From: Candidatus Omnitrophota bacterium
GTDB lineage: Bacteria > Omnitrophota > Gorgyraeia > Duberdicusellales > 4484-171
Direction: 5' to 3'
DNA length: 61,686 bases
Assembly (NCBI GenBank): GCA_043823745.1
Contig: JBDRAN010000012.1
Span: 1 to 61,686, forward strand
Shown here: one piece after another, positions 26,731-49,206 of the stretch
How positions within the stretch are numbered: position 1 is the first letter of the stretch
How the letters are laid out: each line of letters opens with the position of its first letter
Notes under the pieces: generated by a model
Seen by the model: only the letters and a program-made list of their open reading frames with translations
What the model was told of the DNA's origin: nothing
The model's database searches: none
Position numbers and translations under genes: made by a program

Positions 26731-28350
26731 ATGAAATTTTCTCTTGGATATAATCACGATATCGGAATGGTGGCGCTTCTTGAGCGCTACCGCGCGCATA
26801 TCGAAGCGCTTTATTTCCCGGCGCCGGGGCGCCTTATCGGCTCCGGCAGGCACCTTGATCAGGATAATCGTTATGAAACGCAAATCCCCGAGCTTATCGC
26901 GGCATGTCAAAAACTCGATATCCGCAGTCAGCTTCTTTTGAACGCAACATGCGAGGGCCGTGATGGCCTGGCCAAGAATTTTTTTTCTCCCCTCGTTACG
27001 TACGTTAAGGATTTACGTGACCGGGGGCTTACCACTATTGTGGTTACCAACCCTCTCTATATCGAGCAATTCAAAAAGTGTATTCCCGGATTAGTTGTTG
27101 AGGCGTCGGTCAACTGTTATATGCGTACGCCGGAGCACGCTGTTTATCTTAAAAATTTAGGCGCAGACATCCTTACGATTGACCGGGATATTAATCGGGA
27201 TATTTCTCTTATTCGAAAGATAAAAGAGGCCACCGGGTTGCCCTTGCGTCTGATGCTTAACGAAGGGTGCGTGCGTAACTGTCCTTTTCGTAATCTTCAT
27301 TATAACTATATCGCGCATGGAGGAATACCTCCGCATGAGGCGCTTAGGGGTATTTGTCTTGATAAATTTTGCATGAAGATATACCGGAAGAATCCGGAAA
27401 AAATATTCGCTATTCCTTTTGTGCTCCCCGAAGATGTCAGGCGTTACAAAGGGCTGGTTGATTTTTATAAACTTACGACCAGGATTTTTTCTACCAAGCA
27501 GCTTGAAGCATGTCTTAAGGCGTATATTTCCGGCACGTTCACAGGGAACCTGCTTACGATTATTGATAGTCCCGGCTTGGCTGCGTTTGAATATGTTGAT
27601 AGCGCGTACCTTGTAAAGAAGAAATTTTTCAAACGAATGCTTTCCTGCGATGGCGTCTGCCGCCGGTGCGGGTATTGCGCGCGGCTTCTTTCACGGGCGG
27701 CAGTTCTTAATCGTGAATATCTCCCAGAAACGGTCCGCGCGTCTCAGGCGCTTCAGGCGATACAGGTTTATCGAAGAGCTCGTAAGTCACAAGGCTTCGA
27801 TAGCGCATTGCAGATAAACGTAGGCAGAGCCTCTATGGACGCGGGGCTCTACAAAAAGGCGATACGAGCGTTTAAGAATGTTATTGTGCGTAATCCCGGC
27901 GAGGCCGAGGCGTATCTTCTTTTAAGTTCCTGTTACGAGAAGAGTGCTCAAATCAAGGAGGCATTTCGGGTGTATCATGAGGCGCTTAAGCGTTTACCGC
28001 AGGCCCGGCCGCTTTATGTGGGGCTCGCGCGCCTTTATTTTGCCATGCGGGATTATGATGCCGTTATAAAAAATATTCAGAGAGCGCTTGATATTCCGGG
28101 CCAGGAGCATATACCCCGGTTATATTTTATGCTCGGTATTTCCTATCAGAAGACGCGGTGCTACAAAAAAGCTCTGCGATTTTTTAACAAGCTGCAGAAA
28201 TATCCACCGGTTGACCCCGAAGTTTACGCTCATCTTTCGCAGTGTTATCGCGCGCTCGGAGAGGTTAGGCGCGCAAAAGATACGCTTGCGCGTGGGTCGG
28301 CATTGCGCGACAATAACGAGACATCTGCGTTGACGCGGCACGCCGCATGA
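26731..28350 (+). CDS. Peptidase U32-family (Fe-S) protein with C-terminal TPR repeats
   Basis: GSGR, LLNATC, EASVN, DRDINRD, NEGCxxxCP..xH, PED, CxxxCxxCxxC; TPR-like helices in the last ~190 aa. Confidence 0.8.
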   Translation: MKFSLGYNHDIGMVALLERYRAHIEALYFPAPGRLIGSGRHLDQDNRYETQIPELIAACQKLDIRSQLLLNATCEGRDGLAKNFFSPLVTYVKDLRDRGLTTIVVTNPLYIEQFKKCIPGLVVEASVNCYMRTPEHAVYLKNLGADILTIDRDINRDISLIRKIKEATGLPLRLMLNEGCVRNCPFRNLHYNYIAHGGIPPHEALRGICLDKFCMKIYRKNPEKIFAIPFVLPEDVRRYKGLVDFYKLTTRIFSTKQLEACLKAYISGTFTGNLLTIIDSPGLAAFEYVDSAYLVKKKFFKRMLSCDGVCRRCGYCARLLSRAAVLNREYLPETVRASQALQAIQVYRRARKSQGFDSALQINVGRASMDAGLYKKAIRAFKNVIVRNPGEAEAYLLLSSCYEKSAQIKEAFRVYHEALKRLPQARPLYVGLARLYFAMRDYDAVIKNIQRALDIPGQEHIPRLYFMLGISYQKTRCYKKALRFFNKLQKYPPVDPEVYAHLSQCYRALGEVRRAKDTLARGSALRDNNETSALTRHAA

Positions 28351-28445
28351 GGGTGACGCATGTTGCGAGAAAATATGTGTACGAGTGTTCTTGATTCCAT
28401 GTTTGTGTGTGGTATGATACAATTGAATGGGTTCAAGGAGGTGCT

Positions 28446-29210
28446 ATGAGAGTGATAGGTTTTTTTATCGTTTGCATCTTAAGTATCGGAAGCGCTTTTT
28501 TTTGTTTTGCAGAGTGTTCTGGTGGCGGATGCGTTGAAAGCGCCGCGGATGAGTGGGTCTTCAACGAAACAAATGCTTATTGTAATGTTTTACCCCGGCC
28601 GGCAGCGAGTTGGTTCGCGAAAGCAGGGGTCAGCGAAGCTTCGCTTCGTTGGGATTTATCTAATTTTTACGATGGTAACTTCTTTCTTTTGAGTAAGCTC
28701 CGGGCAGGGATTGCGTCAGGAGAGGCATTGACCGGAACTCCCCAGGAGCGCGCGCAGTGGCAGCAGGTGATTCAGCAGGCGCAGGTATTACCGTTTCCCT
28801 GGAGGACCGCGGGTATTGCCCGGCTTTCAGGCGGCCGAGCCCGTCTTGTTACTGATGAGGATGGGTTTGCCTCAATTGGACAGGAGCTGATTCTTAAAAA
28901 TAAATACAGTGTTCTTTTGACTTTTAACTATACTGCCGTTCAGGCAAGCAGTAATGATATGCTTGAGGTGGTGGCTATTTTTCCGCCTGCCGTAGGAGAA
29001 ACGGGTGTATCAGAGGAAGTCATTCTTAGTTCGCATCGCTTGGCCCGGCTTTCCGAGCTTGAAGAGGTGTCGATACCGGTTTTTAAAAATAAGAGTTTCG
29101 AGAGAGCGTTTGGCTCGGCCGGAACACGTCGGGTGGAGATCGCCGTGCGGATTAAAGGAAATGCTCAAAAGGCCGCCACCGTTGATTTCGGTAATTTTAG
29201 TATAGCGTAG
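28446..29210 (+). CDS. Secreted hypothetical protein, paralog of 36114-36797
   Basis: GGAGG RBS, signal peptide; PWRTAG, ASIGQELIL and ATVDFG align with PWRARG, ASLSQDIKL and ATVRLD. Confidence 0.7.
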   Translation: MRVIGFFIVCILSIGSAFFCFAECSGGGCVESAADEWVFNETNAYCNVLPRPAASWFAKAGVSEASLRWDLSNFYDGNFFLLSKLRAGIASGEALTGTPQERAQWQQVIQQAQVLPFPWRTAGIARLSGGRARLVTDEDGFASIGQELILKNKYSVLLTFNYTAVQASSNDMLEVVAIFPPAVGETGVSEEVILSSHRLARLSELEEVSIPVFKNKSFERAFGSAGTRRVEIAVRIKGNAQKAATVDFGNFSIA

Positions 29211-29331
29211 GAGTATCCGTATCTCGCGCACCGGGGAAATAAAAATAATTGACTCTATGCTCGGAGGGTGTACAATAACAGTGATGTTTTCGGGTGGTAT
29301 AATCAATAATGATATTAAAAAAGGAGGAGAA

Positions 29332-29787
29332 ATGAGAAGCTGGTATTTTAGATTGGGGCTCATTTTCCTAGTAACCGCTAGCTTTAGTGGTGTGGTGGCT
29401 GCGGCAAGCGAAACGATTACGATAAGCACGTATTATCCTGCCCCCTTCGGTGTATATAAGCAGATGAAAGTTATGCCTACCCAGACTGCATATATGGTTC
29501 TTGGGGATGACCCGAATAATTCGCGTAATCCTGTCATAAGCCTTGTTGACGCGGATGCAACGGCGGCCGCCGGGGCGGGTACGTTACGCCCCTCGATTAC
29601 GTTTCAGAATTCCGTATCTACCGCCGCTGTTGATTTTCGTATTGCACAATTCGGTGATAATGATTTACGTATTATCGGAGGAACGACTACCTTCGTGAAT
29701 AATGGGGGTAATTACGGAAGGATTAGAGCGGGCGAACTTTGGATTTGCAGCGGTCTTGCTACCCCCACCAACATTGTTCCTGATTGA
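29332..29787 (+). CDS. Secreted 'TISTYYPAP' motif protein, paralog of 36886-37302
   Basis: AGGAGG RBS, signal peptide, ETITISTYYPAPFGVYKQM, GDNDLRIIGGTTTF. Confidence 0.75.
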   Translation: MRSWYFRLGLIFLVTASFSGVVAAASETITISTYYPAPFGVYKQMKVMPTQTAYMVLGDDPNNSRNPVISLVDADATAAAGAGTLRPSITFQNSVSTAAVDFRIAQFGDNDLRIIGGTTTFVNNGGNYGRIRAGELWICSGLATPTNIVPD

Positions 29788-29801
29788 CGAGTGGATATAT
29801 C

Positions 29802-30203
29802 ATGACAACAAAAGGCGGCATCATAGAAGAAGGGAAGGATAGCGTCAAATTGGCAGTTAATTGCGAAATGTACCCTCTTCAAAGCGTTTACGCGGCAGCG
29901 TATGTTTTTTTGGATAAAGCGTATGTGTATCTTGATAAAGAATCAAAGGATACAATCAGTGTATGGCTGTTCCGGAAAAACAAAAAAGACAATCTTCGAA
30001 CATTCGGCATGGATTTCTACAACGAGCTTTTAAATTATGCGCATTACTTTAGCAGTCTTAAGGCGAACGCCGAGGCGATTAAGCTCCTGATGCAACGGGC
30101 ACTTTTTTCCGCTTCCCCGTCGCTTGCGCTTGAAGCGGGGAAGAAAGAGATAGAGGGCCTTGCGCAGGAGCTTACCGATAAAAAAGCGCGTAACGGGCGA
30201 TGA
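29802..30203 (+). CDS. hxsD: His-Xaa-Ser system protein HxsD
   Basis: YPLQSVYAAAYVFLDKAYVYLD...DFYNELLNY...ALF matches the HxsD pattern; HxsB and HxS precursor are nearby. Confidence 0.8.
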   Translation: MTTKGGIIEEGKDSVKLAVNCEMYPLQSVYAAAYVFLDKAYVYLDKESKDTISVWLFRKNKKDNLRTFGMDFYNELLNYAHYFSSLKANAEAIKLLMQRALFSASPSLALEAGKKEIEGLAQELTDKKARNGR

Positions 30204-30415
30204 TGTTCTTAAAGAAAACCGGTAAGAAGATATTTATCAAGCTCCACAAGGAGTTATATGACCGGAATGTTATTGAACGGGTCAAGCGCCAGGAGCCCGG
30301 CATTCTCGGTGTGGTACATAGCGACGCCGCGCATTATCTTGTTGAGATGAGGACAAAACAGAGACGCGATTACCTTGATTTTTTAAATTATCTTATCTAT
30401 ATGGCGCGCGCATAG
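30200..30415 (+). CDS. Small HxsD-like protein
   Basis: 71 aa, coupled to hxsD; IKLHKELYD...DFLNYLI echoes the HxsD layout. Confidence 0.55.
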   Translation: MMFLKKTGKKIFIKLHKELYDRNVIERVKRQEPGILGVVHSDAAHYLVEMRTKQRRDYLDFLNYLIYMARA

Positions 30416-30475
30416 CGTGGTGATAGCGTAAAAATCGAGCTAAAAAATTTTCCTGTTCTAAAAAGGAGGTCGTCG

Positions 30476-30889
30476 ATGAGTAAACCGAAAGAAAAAAAAC
30501 ACTTTAAACCCGTGGCCCGGAGTATCAAGAACTTCCTTAAAGATGAAGATGGTTTCGTTACAAAAAGCAGCATTCTTAAAATTAGCTTAGGGACAGTCGC
30601 TTCCATGGGAATCCTTAGCTCGGCATTTGCGGATTATAATATAAGCCCTATTCGTGTCTCTGATGTCTGGGTTAATACTAACTTTGCTAATTTTCACACC
30701 AACAGTGTCGGGCTTGCCGCGCTCCCTGCCCCTTATGCTGCTCAATTTCCTGAATGTCAACGTATGCTTCATACTAATACGACCGCTCACTTAAGCCATA
30801 GTTCGCATGATTTCCATATGAACGTACGCGGACGGCTTGACGCTAAGGGGTGGGTTGGTAAGATCGTCTACAACGGCCCGTTACTTTAA
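30476..30889 (+). CDS. Putative RiPP-like precursor 1: Flp-pilin-like leader plus His-Xaa-Ser/His-Xaa-Asn core
   Basis: AGGAGG RBS; leader IKNFLKDEDG|FVTKSSILKISLGTVASMGILSS; core HTN, HTN, HLSHSSHDFHMN. Confidence 0.8.
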   Translation: MSKPKEKKHFKPVARSIKNFLKDEDGFVTKSSILKISLGTVASMGILSSAFADYNISPIRVSDVWVNTNFANFHTNSVGLAALPAPYAAQFPECQRMLHTNTTAHLSHSSHDFHMNVRGRLDAKGWVGKIVYNGPLL

Positions 30890-30909
30890 GCAGCATAGTT
30901 TCTGCCTAT

Positions 30910-31722
30910 ATGCGAGGTTTAAAGGCGTTCGGCCACCAATATCAAAAGGGTATTAGATTATTTTCTATTGCAGTCGTGTTTATCGTGGTGACGGTTAGTT
31001 TTTCCGTTGCGGATGCCCAAGAAAATAGCAATACTCCTTCCTTCCTGCCGGGAAAAAATTCCGATGATAGTTTCCAGCGTAAGATAGCCTTCGCTAAAGA
31101 TGTCTTGCAGAAGGCGGGATACCTCGAGATCCTCGAGGTGTATCGCGCGGTTAGAGAAGAGGATACATCTCGGTGCGCATCACCCCAGGCGGTAACCCTT
31201 GCCAACGATCTGCTTGCCTTACGCTATGCCGGAGAGAATCGTTGCGGCAGCATCAAAAATGTTCTTTTCCGCCAGATGTGCGAAGCTGCAAACGCTGACA
31301 GTTGCGATGCGGCAGGTCCTTTAAAAAATTTCTGCTCCGGGGTGCGCGCAAGCGATCCCGTAAGACTTATGCGTGAGCTTTCAGGCGGTGAATTTTTGAA
31401 AGCGCTTGGCGTGCAATTGCCTATCACCGAGAACACCGTTTTATTCGGGCTCTCAATATATTATGGATTTAAGCATTACAGTCCTGTCGCTTGCGAGCGC
31501 TTTTTGAATGACGCGCGTCTTCCGTTGTCCTCCAAGGTTTCCTGCCAGCTTCTTTTCGCTCAGGATTTTAATAGTCAGTATGATTCGCTTGTTAATGATC
31601 TCGCTCTTTTTATGGTTTCGCGCCTGGCGCCACAGGAAGGTGCTTGCGAACAGATACAGAATGGGCGGGTGAAAAAGGCGTGCTTGAACAAGGCGATTAA
31701 AGACTTGGGCGATATCTGGTAA
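30910..31722 (+). CDS. Secreted cysteine-rich hypothetical protein
   Basis: Signal peptide; repeated C-x2-I-x-N-x6-C units (CGSIKNVLFRQMC, CEQIQNGRVKKAC). Confidence 0.7.
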   Translation: MRGLKAFGHQYQKGIRLFSIAVVFIVVTVSFSVADAQENSNTPSFLPGKNSDDSFQRKIAFAKDVLQKAGYLEILEVYRAVREEDTSRCASPQAVTLANDLLALRYAGENRCGSIKNVLFRQMCEAANADSCDAAGPLKNFCSGVRASDPVRLMRELSGGEFLKALGVQLPITENTVLFGLSIYYGFKHYSPVACERFLNDARLPLSSKVSCQLLFAQDFNSQYDSLVNDLALFMVSRLAPQEGACEQIQNGRVKKACLNKAIKDLGDIW

Positions 31723-31726
31723 TTTT

Positions 31727-32581
31727 TTAGCGAAACATTTTGAAGAGCGTTTCCGGAAAACCCGCATAGGTAAGGAGCGCTCCCAGGAACATAAAAGGCG
31801 CCAGGGGCACACGTACGGGCTTTTTGCTTTGGAGCCCTATCGCGGCGTTGAGAATATAGAAACCGATAGAATAGAGGAGTGTTATGCGCATAAAGGCTAT
31901 AATATTTCCGGGTTCAAAGAAGCGTGGCATCGTACAGTAGCGCAGCATGAGTCCCCCGATACCAAGAACAAGGATAAGGAGTTTGTAGCGGATTACGCTG
32001 ATACCCTGGAATATGACGGCATATGAAATAAAAAGAATTACAACGTTAAGGAAAGGGTTGGGGGGAAGTGGTAGAAGTTTTAAGGCCGGCGGCACGATCC
32101 AGGTGATGCTTGCAATGATCATGATTGTCCTTCCAAAATAGAGCATGGTTTTTTTTGATATCAATTGCTTGAAGAACGTAGTTTTATTCTTGATTATATC
32201 GTTCCCCAGCGAAGGAACCAGCCCCAGAAGACTGACAAGAAACGTATTAAGGAAAAGCGCCAGGCAGGGGAGCGGCACTACCGATTGATTGGCTGCGGAG
32301 GGGACCAGGAGCAGGGAATAGGTGACAAAGAGCTTTGCGTCTCCTGCTTTCCAGGCACGGGCAAGATAAAGTATGAACCCGATACCAAGCCCGACGAGAG
32401 GATTCAGAACAATGCGGGGTGTCCAGGGGATAGAGCCAAGCGCCATGCCGACACCGTACCCGAGAATTCCGGCTGTGCCGAGCGCGCACAGGTGCCTGTT
32501 GCGTATTTTTTTTATGGCGATGTCGGTAGTTATGGTAAGCGCCCCGGTTACAAGAAGCACAATTAAAAAATATATATTCAT
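31727..32581 (-). CDS. A24 family prepilin peptidase without methylase domain
   Basis: Catalytic aspartates in TTDIAIKKIRN and AGDAKL; C-terminal RVPLAPFMFLG; multi-TM. Confidence 0.88.
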   Translation of the reverse strand: MNIYFLIVLLVTGALTITTDIAIKKIRNRHLCALGTAGILGYGVGMALGSIPWTPRIVLNPLVGLGIGFILYLARAWKAGDAKLFVTYSLLLVPSAANQSVVPLPCLALFLNTFLVSLLGLVPSLGNDIIKNKTTFFKQLISKKTMLYFGRTIMIIASITWIVPPALKLLPLPPNPFLNVVILFISYAVIFQGISVIRYKLLILVLGIGGLMLRYCTMPRFFEPGNIIAFMRITLLYSIGFYILNAAIGLQSKKPVRVPLAPFMFLGALLTYAGFPETLFKMFR

Positions 32582-32662
32582 GGTATTTTTTGTTATTATA
32601 GCATATCGGGCTCAACGAGCAGTATTTTTTTCTGATGCTTCCGCGGCGAGGGTGAAGGCTCT

Positions 32663-33661
32663 ATGAGTAAATTTACGATACGGAGGTGTTTATCGGGTGA
32701 TCTTTCTAGCCTGGTTGGATTTTTCCGGCGCATGAAAGCCGCGTACGATGTTAATTTCCTGCCGCAGGATAAAGATGCGTTTTTGGAAAAATATTATTGG
32801 CCGGACGCGGAAGAAAAATTTAATTATTATCTTCTGCATAATCGTGATGGCGCAATCGTCGGCGGCACCGGATATGTCCCTTTTAAGGGTCTTTTTTGCC
32901 GGAAACCGCTCTCCGGGTTTGTGGCAACGGATAGCATCATCGACCCGGCCTGGCGCCGGAAGCTCCCCGGGCTCGTCCCTTTATTTGCGCGTACGTATGA
33001 GCGCATGGTGCGCGGCGAAAAGCTATTTCCATTGGCCTGCCCCGCTTCAGAGACGGTTGCGGAAAGTTTCAAGCGAGTGCGCTGGAGCCAATTTACCTGG
33101 ATTTACAAGCTGTATAGTCCGGTTGTAGCCAGGGTTACCCCGCACCTGGCGGCAGCGGGGCTTTGCATTGAGCGGATTGAATGTTTTGATAAGTCGTTTG
33201 AAGAGTTTTTTAAAATGATCGCGTCGGACTACGATTTCCTGATGCACGCCGATCGGGAATTTCTTAATCAAAAATATTGCGGCAATACCCGGGGCCCGTA
33301 TGTCATCCTTGCCGCGCATATGAAGCGTAAACTTTCCGGTTACCTGGTATGCCTGATACGCGACTGCGACATTGAAATCGTCGACGTCACGATCGACATA
33401 CGTTTGCCGCACCTTATCCTTTTCTTGATGTATGCGGCATTTTCGTATTGCCCCCGCCGGGATATTGCGATAACAACTTGTTATGTCAGCAATAAACGTT
33501 ATTTTGAAATCTTGCGTTCAATGGGCTTTTCCTGTTGCTGGGAGGTTGAATGTTTATTTTTTAAACCCGTGGCATTATTCCACCCGGGTTTTGCCGCCGC
33601 AATGGAGCAGTCTGATATGTCAACCTATCATTGCAACGGTTTTACGCAGCAGGCATATTGA
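32663..33661 (+). CDS. Tandem-GNAT acyltransferase 1
   Basis: GFVATDSIIDPAWR, YDFLMHADREFLNQKY, IEIVDV; paralog of 39442-40452. Confidence 0.72.
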   Translation: MSKFTIRRCLSGDLSSLVGFFRRMKAAYDVNFLPQDKDAFLEKYYWPDAEEKFNYYLLHNRDGAIVGGTGYVPFKGLFCRKPLSGFVATDSIIDPAWRRKLPGLVPLFARTYERMVRGEKLFPLACPASETVAESFKRVRWSQFTWIYKLYSPVVARVTPHLAAAGLCIERIECFDKSFEEFFKMIASDYDFLMHADREFLNQKYCGNTRGPYVILAAHMKRKLSGYLVCLIRDCDIEIVDVTIDIRLPHLILFLMYAAFSYCPRRDIAITTCYVSNKRYFEILRSMGFSCCWEVECLFFKPVALFHPGFAAAMEQSDMSTYHCNGFTQQAY

Positions 33662-33721
33662 TGCACGTAATAAGCGCGCAATCATTTTAGTGGATTTTTT
33701 TTGAAGGGTGTGTATAGTAAT

Positions 33722-34612
33722 ATGGCTATGCCGACGGTGGTAACCGGAATATCTTTTGTCTCTGTTAAAACCCTGCCGCAGGTCGCGGATATTGTCGAAT
33801 GCAGCCGCCGCCTCCTGGTTGATCGAGGTGCCGTCATTACCCCGCAGGCGTCCCGCCGCTACGGTTTTTTTCTTGGAACAACATTCAGTAATTTTGCTAT
33901 CCGTAAAGCTAACACTGAAAAGTATTTTTCTCGGGGTGTCCGGCCCATCAACCCCGCCGATTTCCCCAAAGGTTTAATTTCATATCTGGGCGGCGAGTCA
34001 TGCACCGCGCTGGGTATCAAGGGATTTAACATTACCTTTTCAAGCGGTGTTTCTTCAGGCGTTGACGCGCTTATGCAAGGAGTGTATTTTGCCGCGCGGC
34101 ATAAGGGCAATAGGGCGCTGGTGCTTACGCTGCATGAAGCTTTAAAGTCAAACGCGCGTATCGGTTTTTCGGGAATAAGCGGTATTATGGTTGAGGCCGC
34201 GCCTCTTTGTGAGCGTTCCTATGCCGAGATTATGGGATTTAAGTCAGTCTTTGAAAAAGCAGGAGATTGTGAAGGATTACAAAAGCTTATCACGGCGGCT
34301 GTAACGCAGTACCGCCTCCATGAAGCTTCCTTGATGGTTGCCTGTAGCGGCCGATCACGTGGCTCTATAGGATCCCGGCTCTTTGAGCGGATACGTGCAT
34401 CATATCCTATGGTAGAAACGATCAAGTCACCGGTACGTGGCGGGATTTCTGAATTGCTGCGGATCGTAAAGAAAAAAATATGGCTCAAGGAAAAGTATAT
34501 TTTGTTCTCGCAGCTCGGGGAAAACAGCAATAGCGGTTGCGTTGTGCTGCGCGTATCGAAAAGAGGAGGATATCCCGATGAAAAAAAATTCTACCAAAAA
34601 AAGTGTGCGTAA
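33722..34612 (+). CDS. Ketosynthase-like partner (chain-length-factor-like, no catalytic Cys)
   Basis: YGFFLGT, INPADFP, LGIKGFNITFSSGVSSGVDAL where the active-site Cys is absent, YAEIMG; precedes ACP and KS. Confidence 0.72.
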   Translation: MAMPTVVTGISFVSVKTLPQVADIVECSRRLLVDRGAVITPQASRRYGFFLGTTFSNFAIRKANTEKYFSRGVRPINPADFPKGLISYLGGESCTALGIKGFNITFSSGVSSGVDALMQGVYFAARHKGNRALVLTLHEALKSNARIGFSGISGIMVEAAPLCERSYAEIMGFKSVFEKAGDCEGLQKLITAAVTQYRLHEASLMVACSGRSRGSIGSRLFERIRASYPMVETIKSPVRGGISELLRIVKKKIWLKEKYILFSQLGENSNSGCVVLRVSKRGGYPDEKKFYQKKCA

Positions 34613-34895
34613 GAAAACCAAATCCGCTCATTCCGCGCCCCCGGCAAGCGGGAACATTAGAGACCAGGCTATTGAAATTATCAGCAATCTTGCGAAGCTG
34701 CCGAAGGATAAAATGCTGCAGTATAATCGGGAGAACTTTACCGATGTAGGTCTTGATTCTTTTACACTGGTTGAAATTGTATTTTCTATCGAGAACACGT
34801 TTGACATTGATATTCCGCAGGATAGTTTACCCGGTATCAAAAATCTTGATGATTTGATTTCACTTATTGAGGAGCTTGTTAAAAAACGTGGCTGA
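34578..34895 (+). CDS. Acyl carrier protein
   Basis: GLDSFTLVEIVFSIENTFDIDI phosphopantetheine site; GAGGAGG RBS. Confidence 0.92.
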   Translation: MKKNSTKKSVRKKTKSAHSAPPASGNIRDQAIEIISNLAKLPKDKMLQYNRENFTDVGLDSFTLVEIVFSIENTFDIDIPQDSLPGIKNLDDLISLIEELVKKRG

Positions 34896-36039
34896 ACGGG
34901 TTGTGGTGACAGGTCTGGGCGTTGTTTCTTCGCTGGGCGTTACCGTCGAGGTATTTTGGAAGAACCTTATTGCAGGGGCTTCAGGGATGAGTCCTATCGA
35001 GGCGTTTGCGACCGGGCACCTGGAACGCCGCGTCGGAGGAGAAATAAAAAAGTATCAGATTCCTGCAGGCACTCATCATCTGCCCCGGAGCCATCAATTT
35101 GCAATCGATGCATGCGCGAAGGCTCTGGCTGACGCGGGCCTGAGCTACCCGGCGCATTGTGATGTCGCCTTAGGGAGTATTGTCGCAGGACTCGAGTTTC
35201 TTGAAAAAAAACACAAGAGCTTTAAAAATTACCCGCTATATATGCTTGCGGCTAACGTTATAGAGATGCTTACGGTGCGCGGCGCCGCCTTTACGGTGTC
35301 CGGAGCCTGCGCCGCGGGAAACTACGCGGTAGGCTTGGCGTATGAGCGCATTAAGCGCGCAGAGGCAGAGGTGATTCTTGCCGGGGGCGCTGACTATTTT
35401 TCTGAAGGAACATTCATCGGTCTTTATAAAGTTTTTTCACTCGCGCCGGATATATGTCAGCCGTTTGATAAAAATCGTAAGGGCTTGATCCCGGCGGAGG
35501 GTGCGGGAGTACTTGTTCTTGAGTCGCTTTCAAGCGCCCGCAGGCGGGGCGCGCGTATTTACGCGGAAGTTCTAGGCTATGGAGCAAGCACCGATGCCTA
35601 TCACCCGCTCATTCCCTTGCAGGAAGGCATTTATGGGTGCATGGAGGATGCCTTGCGCGCATGCGGCGTCAGCGGCAGTGATATCGATTATATTAGCGCG
35701 CATGGTACGGGCACGGTTCCTAATGACAAAGCGGAATGTCAAGCAATACGCAAACTTTTTGGCAAAGCGCGTTCTAAAAAAATACCCGTAAGCTCAATCA
35801 AATCGATGCTCGGCCATGCGATGGGGGCGGCAAGCGCGATTGAGTCGATTGCCTGCTGTATGGCTATTTCCCGTGGAATACTCCCACCAACGATCAATTA
35901 TAAAACTCGTGATCCTGAGTGTGACCTTGATTGTGTGCCCAATACCGCGCGCGCTTATCGGGCTGATATTATCCTTAACAATGCCTTTGGGTTTGGCGGG
36001 ATGAATTGCTCTGTTGTTCTGGGACGTTGGAAAAATTAA
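34888..36039 (+). CDS. Beta-ketoacyl-ACP synthase (FabF/KAS II-like)
   Basis: RVVVTGLG, GACAAG (Cys), AHGTGT, KSMLGHAMG, NAFGFGGMN. Confidence 0.95.
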   Translation: MAERVVVTGLGVVSSLGVTVEVFWKNLIAGASGMSPIEAFATGHLERRVGGEIKKYQIPAGTHHLPRSHQFAIDACAKALADAGLSYPAHCDVALGSIVAGLEFLEKKHKSFKNYPLYMLAANVIEMLTVRGAAFTVSGACAAGNYAVGLAYERIKRAEAEVILAGGADYFSEGTFIGLYKVFSLAPDICQPFDKNRKGLIPAEGAGVLVLESLSSARRRGARIYAEVLGYGASTDAYHPLIPLQEGIYGCMEDALRACGVSGSDIDYISAHGTGTVPNDKAECQAIRKLFGKARSKKIPVSSIKSMLGHAMGAASAIESIACCMAISRGILPPTINYKTRDPECDLDCVPNTARAYRADIILNNAFGFGGMNCSVVLGRWKN

Positions 36040-36076
36040 TAGGTACGGTGTTTGGCCGGCAGGATACGTTGTTTTC

Positions 36077-36104
36077 TTGACAAGAAACGGTTATGCGATA
36101 TACT
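36077..36104 (+). promoter_or_regulatory. Sigma70-like promoter for the second cluster module
   Basis: TTGACA-N16-TATACT. Confidence 0.55.
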
Positions 36105-36113
36105 AAAAATATC

Positions 36114-36797
36114 ATGAAAATGCAGAGGAGAAAAGTCATTACCGCTGGTTTTTTACTTGCGCTGTTTCCGGTATGGTGCTATGCGCAGACTATTACCATA
36201 AAAGGATCAACCGAGAAAAAACCCCTTACCACGGCTCAGATAGGCGCGTCCTACGAAGTTTCCGATAATTTTCAAAACGGTGATTTTCAGCAATCCGCTC
36301 AGTATGAAACGGCAGTTGCGTCAAACCCCCTGTTTAATCCTCCCTATGCGTTGCGTGCGAACGAACAAGCCCTGGTTGATTTTTTTAAGAAGCCGCTCCT
36401 GTTGCATCCTTGGCGTGCACGAGGCGATGTGAAGCTGGTGCATGAGGGGGATAACATTCTTGTCCAGCTTAATCTTGCCAAGGGGGTGGAAGCATCATTG
36501 TCTCAGGATATTAAATTGAGAGATAAAAATGCTCGTATTGAATTTGATCTTTTTGGTACGGGTGGCGCACCGTCGGGGGTATTTGAGGTAGCGATTCTTG
36601 ATGCATCGGGCCGCTTCCCGATCGCCACATACAGCGCATCTACGATCTCATCCCAGAAACATTGCGTTATAAATCTAAGCGGCAATAAAAATCTTATGGC
36701 TCGCAAAGCCGGCGATACGCTCACGGTTGAGTTTTCCTTACGGGGCAAAGAGCAAGATTCGGCAACCGTGCGTCTTGACTCTGTAGTGATTATGTAG
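36114..36797 (+). CDS. Secreted hypothetical protein, paralog of 28446-29210
   Basis: Signal peptide ending CYA; C-terminal beta-rich domain shared with the paralog. Confidence 0.7.
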   Translation: MKMQRRKVITAGFLLALFPVWCYAQTITIKGSTEKKPLTTAQIGASYEVSDNFQNGDFQQSAQYETAVASNPLFNPPYALRANEQALVDFFKKPLLLHPWRARGDVKLVHEGDNILVQLNLAKGVEASLSQDIKLRDKNARIEFDLFGTGGAPSGVFEVAILDASGRFPIATYSASTISSQKHCVINLSGNKNLMARKAGDTLTVEFSLRGKEQDSATVRLDSVVIM

Positions 36798-36885
36798 CAA
36801 TAGTGAAGGGCTCTTACGCGCCGCCGGCGTGCGTATAGGTATTCTTAAAAAAGAGATATTCGTTCTCGAAAAGAAGGAGGAGTGT

Positions 36886-37302
36886 ATGAGGAAAAATTTT
36901 TTTGTTGCTCTTATGTGTGCCGCGGTGGTGTCTATCGGTGCGAGTGCGTTTTGCGCCGATGAAACAATAACGATATCCACCTATTATCCGGCTCCGTATG
37001 GTGTGTATAAAAAAATGCAAATTATGGATACCCAGGGAGCCAACATAACCTTGTACAGTAGTGACCCCGTTACCGCCGGTAACCCTACGTTAGCCTTAAG
37101 CGATAGTAATGCAGCCGGGGGGTTGATCCCTTCAATTACGTTTGATAATGATCCAGCAGCCAGCCCTGACTTTCGCATATCACTTCGTGGCGATAACGAT
37201 CTTCGGGTGCAGGGGGGCACGACGACATTTACCGATGATGCCGGAAACTATGCGCCCGTGCGTACCAGTAAAATTATTATTTGTTCCGGAGCCGCAACGT
37301 AA
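36886..37302 (+). CDS. Secreted 'TISTYYPAP' motif protein, paralog of 29332-29787
   Basis: AAGGAGG RBS; ETITISTYYPAPYGVYKKM, GDNDLRVQGGTTTF, ICSG. Confidence 0.75.
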   Translation: MRKNFFVALMCAAVVSIGASAFCADETITISTYYPAPYGVYKKMQIMDTQGANITLYSSDPVTAGNPTLALSDSNAAGGLIPSITFDNDPAASPDFRISLRGDNDLRVQGGTTTFTDDAGNYAPVRTSKIIICSGAAT

Positions 37303-37363
37303 TTACTATGGTGTATCCCGTATGTATCGAAAAAACACTATTGCGTAAGGGGTGGGCGTCGCA

Positions 37364-38764
37364 ATGACTGATCGCGTAACACTTCCTTTTAACTCGCGCG
37401 TGATACGTAACAGGTATCTTGTGTCCAATGCCCTTGGAAACTGGGATTTTCTGGAGAAGAACGAATTTCAGGCTTTTCATGGATTGCGTCTTAAACAGGG
37501 AACACCTCTGTTTAGGCGGCTTTATGAGAAAGGTTTGTTGGCGGATGAGCATAACATAAAAACTCTGGTCGATGACTACCGGAATTTAAATGCTAATATT
37601 TTCCATGACACCAGATTACATATTGCCGTTGTGACAACCCGGTGCAATTTACGCTGCTGCTATTGCCAGGCACATACCGGCGCGTACCAGGATATGGACA
37701 TTACGGTCGCAAGCCGTGTTTTAAAGAATATCTTTGACGTTAAAAGCCCCTGCGTTACGTTAGAGTTCCAGGGTGGTGAGCCGCTGCTTAATTGGGAGAC
37801 GGTGCGCTTTCTCATCGAGCAGGCTACAAAGATCAATAACGGCGTAAAACAGCTGCAGTTTTCCCTGACGAGTAATCTAACCTTGCTTGATGATGAGAAA
37901 ATGAAATTTCTCACGGACCACGGCGTCGGAATGTGCGGTTCTTTAGATGGCCCCCGGCACATTCATGATCATAATCGAACGTTTGCCAAGGGCGCGGGAA
38001 GTTACGATACCGTAGTCAAAAACATTCATAGATTTGAAACTGCGTTTGGCGCCAAAATAGGTCTTCTCCCCACCGTTACTAAGCACTCATTACCGTATTA
38101 TAAAGACATCGTTGATGAGTATGTGCGTCTTGGTCAAAGCAGCATTGCGCTTCGGCCGGTCAATCAGCTGGGGCATGCCTGTGCGCAGTGGAATACGCTT
38201 GGCTATACCGCTGAGGAGTTCAGTGAGTTCTACCGCAAGGCCCTTGAGTATATTCTTTCCTTAAATAAAAAAGGGATTTTCATTCGCGAGCGAATGGCTG
38301 CGATTATGCTTGAAAAAGTGCTCAATAAAAAAGATCCCGGATATGTTGAGCTGATGAATCCCTGCGGCGCGGGCCGGGGCCAGATCGTGTATATGCCGGA
38401 TGGAAGTTGTTACCCGTGCGATGAGTCTCGGATGGTGGGTGATGAGATGTTTAAGCTTGGCAATATTCTCGATGAGGATTACGAGGACCTGATGCACAAG
38501 GAAAATCTCCTGCACCTTCTTGAGTCTTCCCTGATGAACCTGTGGGATTATAATTCTGCGTTTGCGCCCTGGATGGGGACCTGCCCGGTTGTTAATTACG
38601 CGGCGCAGAAGAACTTTGTTCCTAAAATCTGGTGTTCAGCGGTCCATAAAATCTATACGGCTCAATTTAACTATCTTTTTGAAAAAATGGAGCAAAGCGA
38701 GGAAAATACAAAGATTTTTAGGCAATGGATAAAAAAGGAGGGTGTTTATGAATCAAAAAAATAA
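37364..38764 (+). CDS. hxsB: His-Xaa-Ser system radical SAM maturase HxsB-like
   Basis: LPFN..YLVSN N-terminus, LHIAVVTTRCNLRCCYCQA, EFQGGEPLLN, SLDGP, GYVELMNPCGAG, YPCDESRM. Confidence 0.85.
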   Translation: MTDRVTLPFNSRVIRNRYLVSNALGNWDFLEKNEFQAFHGLRLKQGTPLFRRLYEKGLLADEHNIKTLVDDYRNLNANIFHDTRLHIAVVTTRCNLRCCYCQAHTGAYQDMDITVASRVLKNIFDVKSPCVTLEFQGGEPLLNWETVRFLIEQATKINNGVKQLQFSLTSNLTLLDDEKMKFLTDHGVGMCGSLDGPRHIHDHNRTFAKGAGSYDTVVKNIHRFETAFGAKIGLLPTVTKHSLPYYKDIVDEYVRLGQSSIALRPVNQLGHACAQWNTLGYTAEEFSEFYRKALEYILSLNKKGIFIRERMAAIMLEKVLNKKDPGYVELMNPCGAGRGQIVYMPDGSCYPCDESRMVGDEMFKLGNILDEDYEDLMHKENLLHLLESSLMNLWDYNSAFAPWMGTCPVVNYAAQKNFVPKIWCSAVHKIYTAQFNYLFEKMEQSEENTKIFRQWIKKEGVYESKK

Positions 38765-39179
38765 GAAGCGATTTGATACCGTCGGGAAAACAATCAAGAG
38801 CTTCATGCGAGATGAGGATGGGTTTGTCGATAAGGGAAAAATCTTAAAAATCAGTTTGGGTACCGTTGCGACATTGGGTATCCTTTCCTCGACATTCAAT
38901 AGCCAGGCTTTAGGGCATGCTAACTACCGACATCAGAATTATGCCGGCCCCAGTGATCCCCAAATTACACACATGAATGGGCAGCTGAATCTTACCAGCC
39001 ACGCCAATACCGTGACGCTGCAGAATATTACGGGGATGACGGGCTGTCAGGAGATAGTGCATAGTAATGCGAATAATGTATTGAAGACATATGTCTTAAA
39101 TGGGGGGATTAACGGTACGGCGACGTATCGCGACTTCTATAATCAATGGGGCGAGGGTGGCAAAATATACGAAGTATAA
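38748..39179 (+). CDS. Putative RiPP-like precursor 2: Flp-pilin-like leader plus five His-Xaa-Asn motifs
   Basis: AAGGAGG RBS inside the hxsB end; leader IKSFMRDEDG|FVDKGKILKISLGTVATLGILSS; HAN, HQN, HMN, HAN, HSN. Confidence 0.8.
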   Translation: MNQKNKKRFDTVGKTIKSFMRDEDGFVDKGKILKISLGTVATLGILSSTFNSQALGHANYRHQNYAGPSDPQITHMNGQLNLTSHANTVTLQNITGMTGCQEIVHSNANNVLKTYVLNGGINGTATYRDFYNQWGEGGKIYEV

Positions 39180-39441
39180 AAAATCGGCTGCCGGTGTATC
39201 GCACGAATCAATTTTTTGATACGATCGTCCGAGTATAGAAACCGCCCGGGAATACGTTGTTGATTTTTCTCCATGGATGCGTGCCTAAAACATGGCACAC
39301 ATGAGTGCGGCTCGGTAGGTTCCTGGAGTGCGTATATTTTCCCGCTGACAATTATCATGTGTCCGGTCTGTCCGCTGCCGGCACGTAACATCACATTAAG
39401 TTTGATTCCTTTATTTTTTCGAAGATTTCTACCCATGGTGT

Positions 39442-40452
39442 ATGCCAACGAACTTAAAGTTTCACGTATGTCGATGCAGCGTCGATGATATCGATAATCT
39501 TGTTACGTTTGCCTCAAGGCTGGCGCATAAGAACATAGTTTTTTTACCCCGCTCCAAAGAACACTTCCTGCGTAAATATCTTAGTTATGGAGAAAAAACC
39601 GGAACGCTCAATCTTTTTGCTATCAAGCGAGAAGATGGAGATATTGTTGGTGTGAGCGGCTTTGTTCCGTTTAAGGGATTTTTTGGCAACAAAATTTTCC
39701 AGGGCTTTATCGGCACTGACGCGGCGATTGACCCCCACTACACCGTCCGCTATCCCGGCCTGGCCGCAATGCTTGCAATGAGTTATGAATCGATGGTACG
39801 TGTCGAGAAGCGGTTTCCCTTAATTTTCCCTAACGATAAAAAGGTCCTTAAAGCGTTTCGGGGTGTGCGCTGGGGAGAGTTTTCTCGCCTGGAGGAGTGG
39901 GTAAATCCTTTCGCGATGCAGCTTATCCCTGATTTTGGCACCGGATCAATCGAAGTCTCGCGCATAGAGCATTTTGAATCTTCAGACCAGCGGTTTTTTA
40001 AACGCGTGGCTTCGCAGTATGATTTTCTGATGCAGGCGGATATTGATCTTTTAAATTGGCGGTATTTTGACAATCCATATGCGGCACAGTCTATCGTCGT
40101 GGCTGCGCGCCGGCAGGGCGAGCTTGCCGGTTACATGGTGGTGCAGGGCGTGGGGGTAGACATCTGCATTGTCGATACGGTTATCGATTTGGAACACCCC
40201 TCCGCGCTTTTACTGCTGCTTTTTAAAACCTTGGAATACTTTGACCGTACCGCGAGCGCGCGTATCCTGTGCTATATGAGCCACCAGCGGTATATTGAAA
40301 TTTTAAGTAAAATAGGATTTTTTAGACAGCATATCTTAAAATGCCTTTTTTTTAAGGCAGGATTGCTTTTTAGCAACACTTCACATGACTTGATGCATGC
40401 TGGTACTTCTCAGCGTTACCATTTTAATGGGTTTGCCCCGCATTTGTGCTAA
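39442..40452 (+). CDS. Tandem-GNAT acyltransferase 2
   Basis: GFIGTDAAIDP, YDFLMQADIDLLNWRYFDNP, YHFNGF; paralog of 32663-33661. Confidence 0.72.
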   Translation: MPTNLKFHVCRCSVDDIDNLVTFASRLAHKNIVFLPRSKEHFLRKYLSYGEKTGTLNLFAIKREDGDIVGVSGFVPFKGFFGNKIFQGFIGTDAAIDPHYTVRYPGLAAMLAMSYESMVRVEKRFPLIFPNDKKVLKAFRGVRWGEFSRLEEWVNPFAMQLIPDFGTGSIEVSRIEHFESSDQRFFKRVASQYDFLMQADIDLLNWRYFDNPYAAQSIVVAARRQGELAGYMVVQGVGVDICIVDTVIDLEHPSALLLLLFKTLEYFDRTASARILCYMSHQRYIEILSKIGFFRQHILKCLFFKAGLLFSNTSHDLMHAGTSQRYHFNGFAPHLC

Positions 40453-40649: not shown

Positions 40650-40976
40650 ATGGTATACGTCTATATTTTAAAAAGTAAGAAAGATGCGAGCTATTATGTT
40701 GGTCAAACTGAGCATATTGTTGATAGATTATATAGACATAATACAGCGCAATCTGTATCAACAAAATTAAAGATACCTTGGGAATTAGTTTATCTGGAAG
40801 AATTTAACACGAGGCCACTCGCAGTTAAACGGGAACTGCAGATAAAGAAACAAAAGCGTAAAAAATATATAGAAAGATTAATCAAATCGGGGCGTGGCTC
40901 AGTTCGGCTAGAGCACTTGGTTTGGGACCAAGAAGTCGGTGGTTCAAATCCACTCGCCCCGACCAAAATTTCATGA
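40650..40976 (+). CDS. Small GIY-YIG nuclease family protein (ORF reads through tRNA-Pro)
   Basis: MVYVYILKS....YYVGQT....RL.RHN...PWELVYLEEF...A..RE..IKK. Confidence 0.88.
   Translation: MVYVYILKSKKDASYYVGQTEHIVDRLYRHNTAQSVSTKLKIPWELVYLEEFNTRPLAVKRELQIKKQKRKKYIERLIKSGRGSVRLEHLVWDQEVGGSNPLAPTKIS
40888..40965 (+). tRNA. tRNA-Pro(TGG)
   Basis: CGGGGCG acceptor, CTTGG-TTTGGGA-CCAAG, GTTCAAATC, ACCA. Confidence 0.96.
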
Positions 40977-41127
40977 CCAATATCGGGAAGGTCGTGGGTT
41001 CAAATCCCACCTTCCCGATATGTGCTTTGGCAAGTGTCGGGAAGCCCGATGGTCAAAACCTGTCCGCCCCGATTATAATAATTTTCTTTTTCCTCTTGTG
41101 TGTTGTGGTGGTATAATATTATTTACC

Positions 41128-41571
41128 ATGAGACGTATTGCAGTATTAGTATTGTTGTATCTTACATGCGCGGTGTGCAATGTGTATGCGCTTGGGTTTT
41201 CAACGGAAGAGGCAATCAGTTACTACAACGAAGGGGTCAAGGCTCAAAAGAGCGGTGATTTTAATGGCGCGTTTAACGCCTACCAGAAGACGTTGTTGCT
41301 AGCCCCCGATAATCTTGAGTATCACAAATCTATCCGCAATAATCTTGGCATTATGTATCATCATCGAGGAGATCTTGCGGGAGCGGAGCAGGCGTTCAAG
41401 GAGGCATTGCTTATAGACCCGGAGTACCAAGCAGCAAAATTTAATCTTGGATTGATCTATGACGCGCGCCGTGGTAAGGCGGCGTCATTGCCCTATTGGG
41501 CACAGCTCCTTGACCTGGAATCGCTTAAGCCAAGAGAATTTATTCTGGAGCCCGCGCGTAAGAAAGAATAG
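41128..41571 (+). CDS. Secreted TPR-repeat protein
   Basis: Signal peptide MRRIAV...VYA; YNEGV, NNLGIMY and FNLGLIY TPR motifs. Confidence 0.85.
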   Translation: MRRIAVLVLLYLTCAVCNVYALGFSTEEAISYYNEGVKAQKSGDFNGAFNAYQKTLLLAPDNLEYHKSIRNNLGIMYHHRGDLAGAEQAFKEALLIDPEYQAAKFNLGLIYDARRGKAASLPYWAQLLDLESLKPREFILEPARKKE

Positions 41572-44251: not shown

Positions 44252-44323
44252 GAAACAAACCAAGAGAGGCTATTTACAAGAGATCGATTTTGGTATATCA
44301 TAAAAAGGTAAAAAAAGGAAATT

Positions 44324-45825: not shown

Positions 45826-45898
45826 GTGTAGCTCAGTTGGTTAGAGCCCTTGACTGTGGCTCAAGGTGTCGCGAGTTCGATTCTCGTCACCTACCCCA
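45821..45898 (+). tRNA. tRNA-His(GTG)
   Basis: G-1, CTTGA-CTGTGGC-TCAAG, GTTCGATTC, CCA. Confidence 0.96.
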
Positions 45899-45941
45899 AT
45901 TATTACCCTCATGCGAACCGAGGCTCTTGTGAGCCACAAAA

Positions 45942-47970: not shown

Positions 47971-48050
47971 AATTCCTGAATGAGGTAGATATCTAAGACG
48001 GCATTGCAAGATAGAATAGGGTTAATCTTTTTTTGCTGGGTATAAAAAAT

Positions 48051-49166: not shown

Positions 49167-49206
49167 AAAACCTTCATTGGTCAAGCTATGACCGGTGAAG
49201 GTTTTC
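49167..49206 (+). terminator. Strong hairpin in the leader of the protease gene
   Basis: aaaaccttcattggtca-agcta-tgaccggtgaaggtttt. Confidence 0.5.

Follow-up and report, generated by a model that had tools for sequence, protein, structure and literature searches.

The stretch of DNA analysed here, referred to throughout as the window, is a 61,686-nucleotide contig of a Candidatus Omnitrophota bacterium (assembly GCA_043823745.1, contig JBDRAN010000012.1), and it carries a peptide-maturation cluster encoding an HxsB radical SAM enzyme, an HxsD-like protein and an A24-like peptidase. Within this cluster, on the + strand between positions 32663 and 36039, lie four genes for a GNAT acyltransferase (GNAT1), a truncated ketosynthase-like (KS-like) protein, an acyl carrier protein (ACP) and a ketosynthase (KS). 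We propose, with a confidence that stands about midway between doubt and conviction, that these four genes constitute a dedicated module for acyl-chain building and acyl transfer, which acts as a lineage-specific tailoring step of the cluster. The KS has its catalytic triad intact, the KS-like protein is dead, the KS and ACP are distinct from those of housekeeping fatty-acid synthesis (FAS), and the block is inherited together with the peptide cluster. Transfer of the acyl chain to a peptide by the GNAT is plausible, by analogy with GNATs that take their acyl group from a carrier protein. A sequence-only reading of this DNA had called the same four genes, all of which are present, and its labels are valid with small corrections. 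The cluster genes are 33-69% identical to their counterparts in other genomes, and since the four are kept at this level they are not chance open reading frames (ORFs). The host genome (G000) comprises 2.1 Mb in 64 contigs and is 92% complete, the window being its contig C12. The genes of the module, together with the second GNAT gene of the cluster, are as follows.

32663-33661, + strand: GNAT1, 332 aa, tandem-GNAT fold, at the head of the acyl operon
33722-34612, + strand: KS-like, truncated ketosynthase-like protein lacking Cys-His-His (ORF from 33701)
34578-34895, + strand: ACP, 105 aa, with a GxDS site and a Lys-rich N-terminal extension
34888-36039, + strand: KS, KAS II-like, with Cys-His-His intact (ORF from 34867)
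39442-40452, + strand: GNAT2, a paralogue of GNAT1, directly after precursor 2

The KS-like gene occupies an ORF at 33701-34612, and its likely start at ATG 33722 gives a protein of 296 aa that matches PF00109 at 21.6 bits over the N-terminal half only. The alignment column of the ketosynthase catalytic Cys is occupied by V in the window protein and by a residue other than Cys in 20 of 21 family members, and both catalytic His are gone, the HGTGT and GH histidines being absent; judged by these residues, the protein is catalytically dead. Its family consists of proteins about 290 aa long, for which a HMMER search returned 50 representatives at E <=1e-3 (29 at E <=1e-10), with ordinary 400-aa KSs appearing only at E 1e-7 or weaker. 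At 296-303 aa, with family members of 259-312 aa, it is not of full-length chain length factor (CLF) size, which is about 400 aa. CLF (KS-beta) proteins carry a conserved Gln at the Cys position, and the residue at this column of the KS-like family is variable rather than a conserved Gln. Foldseek places the AF2 model (pLDDT 81.6) closest to FabF enzymes and to AntE and Iga12, which are CLF chains, at TMq 0.65-0.73.

Prediction of a complex between the KS and the KS-like protein gave 0.95 in each of three runs, compared with 0.00 for the best of three controls, and in these runs the contacts agree to at least 91% and the partner pLDDT is at least 79. The mark applied to such predictions is reached by 116 of 157 solved complexes and by 2 of 215 mismatched pairs, counts that are rough, with our own alignments used. 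KS/CLF heterodimers have already been solved, and the pass may reflect likeness to these rather than binding. We infer that the active KS pairs with the dead KS-like subunit as a KS/CLF-type heterodimer. The earlier suggestion that a Cys-less KS serves as a CLF-type partner is in keeping with the absence of the Cys, the CLF-like fold and the predicted heterodimer.

The active KS matches both KS Pfam domains, and the residues Cys148, His279 and His317 are found in all six cluster KSs, with Lys312 also present in the window KS. Its score against the fabF model (TIGR03150) is 346.9 bits, below the cut-off of 493.75, and on sequence grounds it is an active KAS II-like enzyme and not a FabF orthologue. 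The ACP matches PP-binding (PF00550) at 32.5 bits against a cut-off of 20.8, reaches only 40.3 bits against the AcpP equivalog (cut-off 70.45), and has the attachment site G-x-D-S that is invariant in six aligned ACPs. A Lys-rich N-terminal extension of about 25-35 residues is present in three of four aligned cluster ACPs (window 34578-34670, L001:10925-11236 and L002:6921-7259; L numbers denote loci) and is absent from the ACP of L033, from an ACP on contig C16 and from the housekeeping ACP. The ACP start, ATG 34578, is preceded by GAGGAGG and lies within a 35 nt overlap of the KS-like gene and the ACP gene, and the likely KS start, GTG 34888, overlaps the ACP stop by 8 nt. This arrangement indicates that the KS is translationally coupled to the ACP and that the genes are tightly coupled in one operon.

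The genome contains nine KS genes and five ACP genes, among which a plsX-fabH-fabD-fabG-acpP-fabF row on contig C5 provides the housekeeping set, its FabF scoring 603.3 bits. The window KS (KS390) shares 36.7% identity with this FabF, 45% with a KS that belongs to a KS-ACP-KS set on C16, and 57-69% with its cluster orthologues. In a tree of 14 KS sequences the six cluster KSs form one clade (100/99), which is sister to the C16 KS (98/96) and stands apart from FabF; within it, the window KS groups with that of L002. The KS and ACP had been put forward as dedicated, and grouping with housekeeping FAS, which would have spoken against this, is found neither in the KS tree, nor in comparison with the C5 set, nor in the scores, which lie below cut-off. 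At other places the genome also has genes for a phosphopantetheinyl transferase and for a dehydratase of the FabZ type. Ketoreductase, dehydratase, enoyl reductase and acyltransferase domains were all lacking from a Pfam scan of the 56 larger window ORFs, in agreement with the earlier remark that no reductase or dehydratase is visible beside the KS and ACP.

The best solved relative of the KS is 9s5h_B (332.7 bits), followed by the ishigamide KS Iga11 (280.1) and Bacillus subtilis FabF (264.6), and the best PDB match of the KS-like profile is 9s5h_C, at 67 bits. A full-length Cys-less KS on C16 matches the same 9s5h_C chain at 328.5 bits. Because the KS and the KS-like protein are both closest to 9s5h chains, and the C16 set is its full-length counterpart, the module seems to derive from a heterodimer set of the KS'/ACP/KS type whose inactive partner was shortened. 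The PDB entries 9s5h and 9s5i represent a solved heterodimer of two different chains named '3-oxoacyl-ACP synthase' and are the closest solved relatives of the C16 pair as well as of the window KS/KS-like pair; a literature search found no relevant paper for 9S5H/9S5I.

KS/ACP sets are present at four other places in the genome (C16:4403-7179, C59:10881-13462, C48:62894-64129 and C20:20730-25454). Three full-length KSs lack the Cys-His-His triad, with F/A/E at the three positions in C16a, F/C/E in C48 and K/D/N in C59b, and are likely CLF-type partners. The C59 KS set has cyclase and polyketide-cyclase genes as neighbours, and the C20 set has aminotransferase, FMN oxidoreductase and UbiA genes.

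Searches with the KS-like and GNAT alignments added seven loci to that of the window: L001 and L002 from Omnitrophota, L033 (= G393), and the metagenome contigs L102-L105. In all eight loci with a close GNAT orthologue (window, L001, L002, L033, L102, L103, L104 and L105) the GNAT gene is followed by those for KS-like, ACP and KS, counted as far as the contigs reach, L102 ending inside the KS and L103 inside the ACP. In each of the six loci with visible upstream DNA (window, L001, L002, L033, L102 and L104), the A24-like gene (on the opposite strand), the precursor and HxsB lie beside the block. The acyl genes thus sit inside the peptide cluster as had been read from the window alone, with the block fixed in 8/8 loci and the Hxs-A24 cluster adjoining in 6/6. 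Among 401 genomes of the phylum, the GNAT (E <1e-100) occurs in three (G000, G323 and G393), and the full-length truncated KS-like protein (>300 bits) occurs in the same three. Other KS-like matches (E <=1e-12) are found in 107 genomes, where they are parts of proteins, in frames mostly of about 400 aa, and reach at most 113 bits.

HxsB itself is present in 44 of the 401 genomes. Twelve further HxsB loci (L090-L101) have a core consisting of a 176-aa-type secreted protein, an HxsD-like protein, HxsB and a precursor, often with a 270-aa protein; an A24-like gene is present in seven of the twelve, three of the loci end at a contig edge, and none of the twelve has KS-like, ACP or KS. Since the module is found in 3/401 genomes compared with 44/401 for HxsB, and in 0/12 of the further HxsB loci, it is a rare accessory added to a widespread HxsB-A24 core. 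The HxsB loci of Omnitrophota (L090-L101, L033 and L037) usually have an A24-like gene and an HxsA3-like precursor and lack HxsC, and their tailoring genes vary, including extra radical SAM enzymes and DegT, GT28-like and AsnB-like genes. Both L037 and L091 have DegT and extra radical SAM enzymes, and L091 also has an asparagine-synthase-like gene. No description of an HxsB-A24 pairing was found in a literature search, and the pairing seems to be undescribed.

The cluster spans 28.4-40.5 kb of the window and is on the + strand nearly throughout. Apart from the genes given above, it consists of the following.

28407-29787, + strand: secreted pair of unit 1 (267 aa and 176 aa), paralogous to 36093-37302
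29784-30203, + strand: HxsD-like protein, TIGR03976 below cut-off
30200-30415, + strand: small HxsD-related protein, NF038315 at 14 bits
30476-30889, + strand: precursor 1, 137 aa, with an HxsA3-like leader, a hydrophobic stretch and a His-rich C-terminal part
30910-31722, + strand: 270-aa secreted Cys-containing core protein, of no Pfam or NCBIfam family
31727-32581, - strand: A24-like membrane aspartic peptidase, lacking a methylase domain and divergently oriented to GNAT1
36093-37302, + strand: secreted pair of unit 2 (234 aa and 157 aa), with a promoter-like site at 36077-36104 (11/12)
37352-38764, + strand: HxsB radical SAM/SPASM maturase, TIGR03978 above cut-off
38742-39179, + strand: precursor 2, 145 aa, with a weak NF038309 match

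These genes appear to form two units. The order in unit 1 is two secreted proteins, HxsD-like, HxsD-related, precursor 1, the 270-aa protein, A24-like, GNAT1, KS-like, ACP and KS, and that in unit 2 is two secreted proteins, HxsB, precursor 2 and GNAT2. L001 and L002 have each gene once, in the unit 1 order with HxsB ahead of the precursor, and both keep the HxsD-like as well as the HxsD-related protein. In the window two copies are seen only of the precursor, the GNAT and the pair of secreted proteins, with HxsB, HxsD, A24, ACP and KS single. The 176-aa and 157-aa secreted proteins are 47% identical and the 267-aa and 234-aa proteins match weakly (E 0.001). The 270-aa protein has orthologues in L001, L002, L102, L037, L092, L094, L095 and L099. 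The appearance of the cluster at 28407-40452 is that of two units, merged or duplicated, each of which has lost genes that the other keeps: HxsB is missing from unit 1, and HxsD, A24, the 270-aa protein, KS-like, ACP and KS are missing from unit 2.

The duplication bears on the role of the GNATs. GNAT2 is 38% identical to GNAT1 over 331 aa and follows precursor 2 as had been noted, its gene lying at 39442-40452 and that of the precursor at 38742-39179. Full-length GNAT orthologues are present in L001, L002, L033, L102 and L104, and partial ones in L103 and L105; the L104 orthologue (9992-10998) is split into two ORFs, 9992-10486 and 10579-10998, by a frameshift or an assembly error. The ratio of GNAT to precursor is 2:2 in the window and 1:1 in L001, L002, L033, L102 and L104, and the proposed rule of one GNAT per precursor holds in all six loci where both can be counted. 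In a tree of 12 GNAT sequences GNAT1 and GNAT2 both fall within a 100/100 clade of KS-linked GNATs without being sisters, GNAT1 grouping with the L002 type and GNAT2 being nearest to the L001 type. Duplication of the GNAT with the precursor, alongside a single ACP, fits GNATs that recognise a precursor and share one ACP, and is a poor fit to a GNAT that acts only as an ACP loader. Distant tandem GNATs (21-25% identity) are also found in two Hxs clusters lacking KS and ACP: that of L037 and that of L091, where the GNAT comes immediately behind the precursors.

GNAT1 has no Pfam or NCBIfam match of its own, and alignment of the GNATs against PDB sequences gave nothing significant (best match E 0.053). 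Its ESM Atlas feature score is 0.97, with TM of 0.82-0.84 to clusters carrying Acetyltransf_9 or Acetyltransf_1. Foldseek against the PDB gave E values between 1.6e-9 and 1e-7, at probability 1.00 but with TM of only 0.27-0.40, for the tandem GNATs VipF, MAB_4324, Eis and the one from clavulanate; the model behind this search, built on a six-row alignment, is of low confidence (pLDDT 62.4, pTM 0.50). The L002 orthologue passes PF00583 at 24.6 bits against a cut-off of 20.7. The Atlas and Foldseek results and the PF00583 membership of the L002 orthologue together identify GNAT1 as a tandem-GNAT-fold protein, with two copies of the fold in one chain.

Of the Hxs proteins, HxsB matches TIGR03978 at 412.8 bits against a cut-off of 370, the HxsD-like protein scores 35.7 bits against TIGR03976 (cut-off 50), and the 14 bits of the HxsD-related protein against NF038315 are likewise below cut-off. 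No HxsC was found genome-wide in this 92% complete assembly, the best TIGR03977 match scoring 48.6 bits against a cut-off of 267.9. The precursors match the HxsA3 model NF038309 at 26 bits (precursor 1) and 18.9 bits (precursor 2), both below the cut-off of 65 and limited to the first ~50 residues, and they are 65% identical to each other over the leader. PADLOC, run on 14 cluster proteins, gave no match other than a generic radical SAM likeness of HxsB to viperin models.

The A24-like protein is 284 aa long and matches PF01478 at 18.6 bits, below the cut-off of 26.5, with its orthologues in L033 and L037 above it at 28.3 and 29.0 bits. D20 and the motif A-G-D81-x-K-L-F are invariant in five orthologues, and we take D20 and D81 to be the two catalytic aspartates of prepilin peptidases. 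The peptidase domain comprises residues 8-121 and there is no further Pfam match at E <=0.01; as the earlier reading had it, there is no N-terminal methylase domain. Methylase-free A24 enzymes are common (TadV/CpaA and FlaK are examples), so the missing domain is not in itself special. A second, canonical A24 gene is present on contig C54, and the cluster gene is therefore an extra copy. Alignment of six precursors shows D23, E24 and G26 to be invariant, defining a D-E-x-G motif, and this acidic site lies about 8 residues before the hydrophobic stretch; classical prepilins have a basic leader that ends directly at the hydrophobic stretch.

The mechanism that we envisage would begin with extension of an acyl chain on the dedicated ACP by the KS/KS-like heterodimer, with malonyl loading and any reduction or dehydration borrowed from the housekeeping FabD, FabG and FabZ encoded elsewhere. 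A cytoplasmic tandem GNAT would next take the acyl group from the ACP and attach it to an amine on the HxsA3-like precursor, with GNAT1 serving precursor 1, GNAT2 serving precursor 2, and the single ACP common to both. The acceptor could be a Lys side chain, or else the alpha-amine freed when the A24-like peptidase cleaves behind D-E-x-G at the cytoplasmic side. Such a transfer would be topologically possible on the leader side, which is predicted by the positive-inside rule to be cytoplasmic and is where A24 enzymes also cut. The window GNAT may belong with the carrier-protein-dependent GNATs (GdvG/AprG, SbzI, FeeM and CurA/GphF), a suggestion drawn from its gene linkage to an ACP. ACP-dependent GNATs exist, in that the goadvionin enzyme GdvG/AprG transfers an ACP-bound polyketide to the N-terminus of a RiPP, a peptide made by the ribosome and modified after translation, according to passages of PMC8784127 and PMC11685415.

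Several observations weigh against this mechanism, and some concern the N-terminus. The residue that follows the conserved Gly is F in four of the six precursors, K in L033 and N in L037, and the new N-terminal Phe that had been foreseen is consequently not a conserved feature and is a weak candidate for the acceptor. The sequence-only interpretation therefore stands in part: the dedicated KS and ACP, the CLF-type partner, the GNAT linkage, the GNAT to precursor ratio and the lack of a methylase hold, and the conserved N-terminal Phe does not. In addition, an A-x-A-type signal-peptidase site, read from the alignment, follows the hydrophobic stretch in all four close precursors, and cleavage there would discard the N-terminus together with any N-terminal acyl group. 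Others concern the GNAT and its linkage. The acyl-CoA pyrophosphate-binding motif of GNATs is Q/R-x-x-G-x-G/A, placed after strand 4, and by eye on the alignment no canonical form of it was seen in either GNAT half: the N-terminal half has R-R-x-L-P-G-L, in which the Gly is not invariant, and the C-terminal half lacks G-x-G. Without the canonical donor-binding motif the donor chemistry is unreadable from sequence, and the GNAT model has the low confidence given above. Lastly, the module-bearing genomes are kin, L001 and the window having flanking Mem_trans, SmpB and inositol monophosphatase genes in common, so that the conserved order is partly a matter of shared descent and the 3/401 genomes do not represent three independent events.

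The gene neighbourhoods of GNAT relatives raise a further objection. In the sister clusters L033 and L037 a GT28-like glycosyltransferase is encoded next to the GNAT, DegT aminotransferase genes are nearby in L033, L037 and L091, and more distant GNAT relatives, from loci of the same class, sit in glycan clusters, all of which makes a sugar or other small amine a possible acceptor. The GNAT would then N-acylate an amino sugar or another small amine, yielding a lipid or glycolipid that would later be added to the peptide or else have a role in the envelope. The L033 glycosyltransferase lies directly upstream of GNAT/KS-like/ACP/KS; a distant GNAT and DegT are found in both L037 and L091, in L037 along with the GT28-like gene, and in five loci of the same class (L034, L035, L036, L038 and L040) distant tandem GNATs lie among GT2, GT9 and GT4 glycosyltransferases, polysaccharide deacetylases and epimerases. 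However, there is no glycosyltransferase or DegT in or beside the clusters of the window, L001 and L002, the window GNAT was duplicated with the precursor and not with a sugar gene, and the GNATs of glycan clusters are only 21-30% identical, over one domain. We consider a non-peptide acceptor unlikely.

A different account is that the GNATs only N-acetylate the peptides, or something else, with acetyl-CoA, and that KS-like, ACP and KS make an unrelated lipid. Most GNATs use acetyl-CoA, the nearest solved folds of GNAT1 are acetyltransferases, and the KS/ACP sets on C16, C20, C48 and C59 have no assigned roles. This account is improbable, since the GNAT and KS-like/ACP/KS are found together in 8/8 loci and in the same 3/401 genomes, and the genes form one tightly spaced operon.

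It is also conceivable that the GNAT loads the ACP rather than off-loading it, priming it with a starter from acyl-CoA in the manner of the GNAT-type initiation domains of CurA and GphF, the chain leaving by some other route. No FabD-like acyltransferase is encoded in the cluster, the GNAT/KS-like/ACP/KS operon opens with the GNAT, and carrier-protein-dependent GNAT-like decarboxylases are known, as described in passages of PMC11685415. Set against this, a second GNAT has been retained beside the second precursor, well away from the only ACP, and Hxs clusters devoid of an ACP (L037 and L091) still contain distant GNATs. A housekeeping FabD is also available, and neither a thioesterase nor any other enzyme for off-loading is seen among the genes of the window cluster. 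We regard a loading role as decidedly improbable. That the KS and ACP are housekeeping fatty-acid synthesis genes merely adjoining the peptide genes is scarcely credible and was rejected: fabF is the best NCBIfam model for the KS, but the fabF and AcpP scores fall short of their cut-offs, a complete set with a FabF of 603 bits is on C5, the tree and the identities separate the cluster KS from FabF, and the partner KS is dead and truncated.

Some features in and around the cluster stand apart from the acyl module. The secreted proteins encoded at 29257-29787 and 36829-37302, and a third copy at G000:C2:904-1926, have the motif ETITISTYYPAP(F/Y)GVYK right after the signal peptide, and a ETITISTYYPAP(F/Y)GVYK-type protein is the first gene product of nearly every HxsB-A24 cluster seen. 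The 176-aa member gave no family or fold lead, its Atlas rows being sub-threshold (features <=0.87, TM <=0.39). Between an inositol monophosphatase gene and the cluster, positions 26731-28350 encode a protein of 539 aa that weakly matches Peptidase_U32 and has TPR repeats at its C-terminal end; tblastn found no counterpart of it in the syntenic locus L001. On the other side, a GIY-YIG nuclease ORF (40650-40976) runs into tRNA-Pro (40888-40965), and the listed ORF 40939-41571 also overlaps this tRNA, so that the TPR protein it encodes must start later. From 44000 to 61686 the G+C content falls from ~0.47 to 0.38-0.42; this part contains an HNH endonuclease gene, tRNA-His and an IS200-like transposase gene (46005-46670), then MMPL/RND and LolA-like genes, and another IS200-like copy is at C16:12573-13268. 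A search for sequencing runs found only groundwater metagenome DNA runs and no RNA runs.

Lipidated ribosomal peptides are few, and those known (goadvionins, lipolanthines and selidamides) come from Actinomycetota, cyanobacteria and Proteobacteria. To our knowledge, the only studied member of the Hxs radical SAM family is an antiphage system. If the proposed role of the module is true, the range of ACP-dependent GNAT lipidation would come to include an uncultured phylum and the different peptide chemistry of Hxs radical SAM enzymes, a GNAT would be tied to a prepilin-peptidase-type processing step, and the module would offer enzymology a minimal chain-building unit, with an active KS and a dead partner of 290 aa. 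The window layout, with two precursors, two GNATs and one ACP, amounts to a natural specificity experiment. A fuller version of the proposal is doubtful: it would be a new lipidation route in which an exported, radical-SAM-modified protein is cut at the cytoplasmic face by a dedicated prepilin-peptidase-like enzyme and its new N-terminus is acylated, not methylated, by a carrier-protein-dependent tandem GNAT, with the chain coming from a private KS/dead-KS/ACP set and one GNAT for each substrate. ACP-dependent GNAT lipidation of ribosomal peptides is already known, and the new part would be the combination of enzymes in Omnitrophota; a literature search found no match, for this phylum, to an Hxs radical SAM enzyme combined with a prepilin-peptidase-like protein, a tandem GNAT of no family and a dead KS partner of 290 aa. 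Ladderane-type clusters have been called in Omnitrophota (PMC9902471), in passages that do not mention an Hxs-A24-acyl system.

Compared with known systems, the cluster resembles the antiphage HXS system HxsD-HxsB-HxsC-HxsA of E. coli and other Gammaproteobacteria in having HxsB, an HxsD-like protein and an exported substrate with an N-terminal leader, as given in passages of PMC13128918. According to the same passages, HxsD-B-C-A is found in >99% of HXS systems, almost all of them in Pseudomonadota. In contrast, the window genome lacks HxsC, the cluster lacks a peptidoglycan-binding HxsA, and it adds the A24-like peptidase, secreted proteins and the acyl module; it is not the four-gene HXS antiphage system in the form described there.

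The A24-like protein resembles prepilin peptidases (PilD; TadV/CpaA/FlaK) as a polytopic membrane protein with two conserved Asp, one of them in A-G-D-x-K-L-F, and the precursors resemble prepilins in having an invariant Gly before a hydrophobic stretch. It differs in being a divergent second copy below the Pfam cut-off (18.6 compared with 26.5 bits), and the precursors differ in their acidic D-E-x-G placed ~8 residues ahead of the stretch, as opposed to a basic leader ending at it.

With the KS/CLF pairs of type II polyketide synthases and their relatives (ishigamide Iga11/Iga12, 6kxd; AntD/AntE, 6smo; 9s5h/9s5i) the module has in common an active KS and a Cys-less partner. The window partner is only ~290 aa, whereas theirs is ~400, most of the C-terminal catalytic half is missing, and its residue at the Cys position is variable and not the conserved Gln.

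The closest functional parallels are among lipidated RiPPs. Selidamide pathways include RiPP-associated GNATs that fatty-acylate a peptide amine, as passages of PMC8784127 relate, and goadvionin and lipolanthine clusters similarly encode a GNAT with dedicated ACP and ketosynthase machinery beside a ribosomal precursor, as given in parts of PMC8784127 and PMC11685415. Those two pathways use avionin or lanthionine enzymes, whereas the window cluster has an HxsB radical SAM enzyme, an HxsD-like protein and an A24-like peptidase, and its precursors, of 137-145 aa, have a membrane-type hydrophobic stretch. The window GNAT, compared with GdvG by description only, differs from it as a 332-aa tandem GNAT with no Pfam match. 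Finally, the window's chain-building set consists only of a KS, a truncated KS-like protein and an ACP, and its host belongs to the Omnitrophota.

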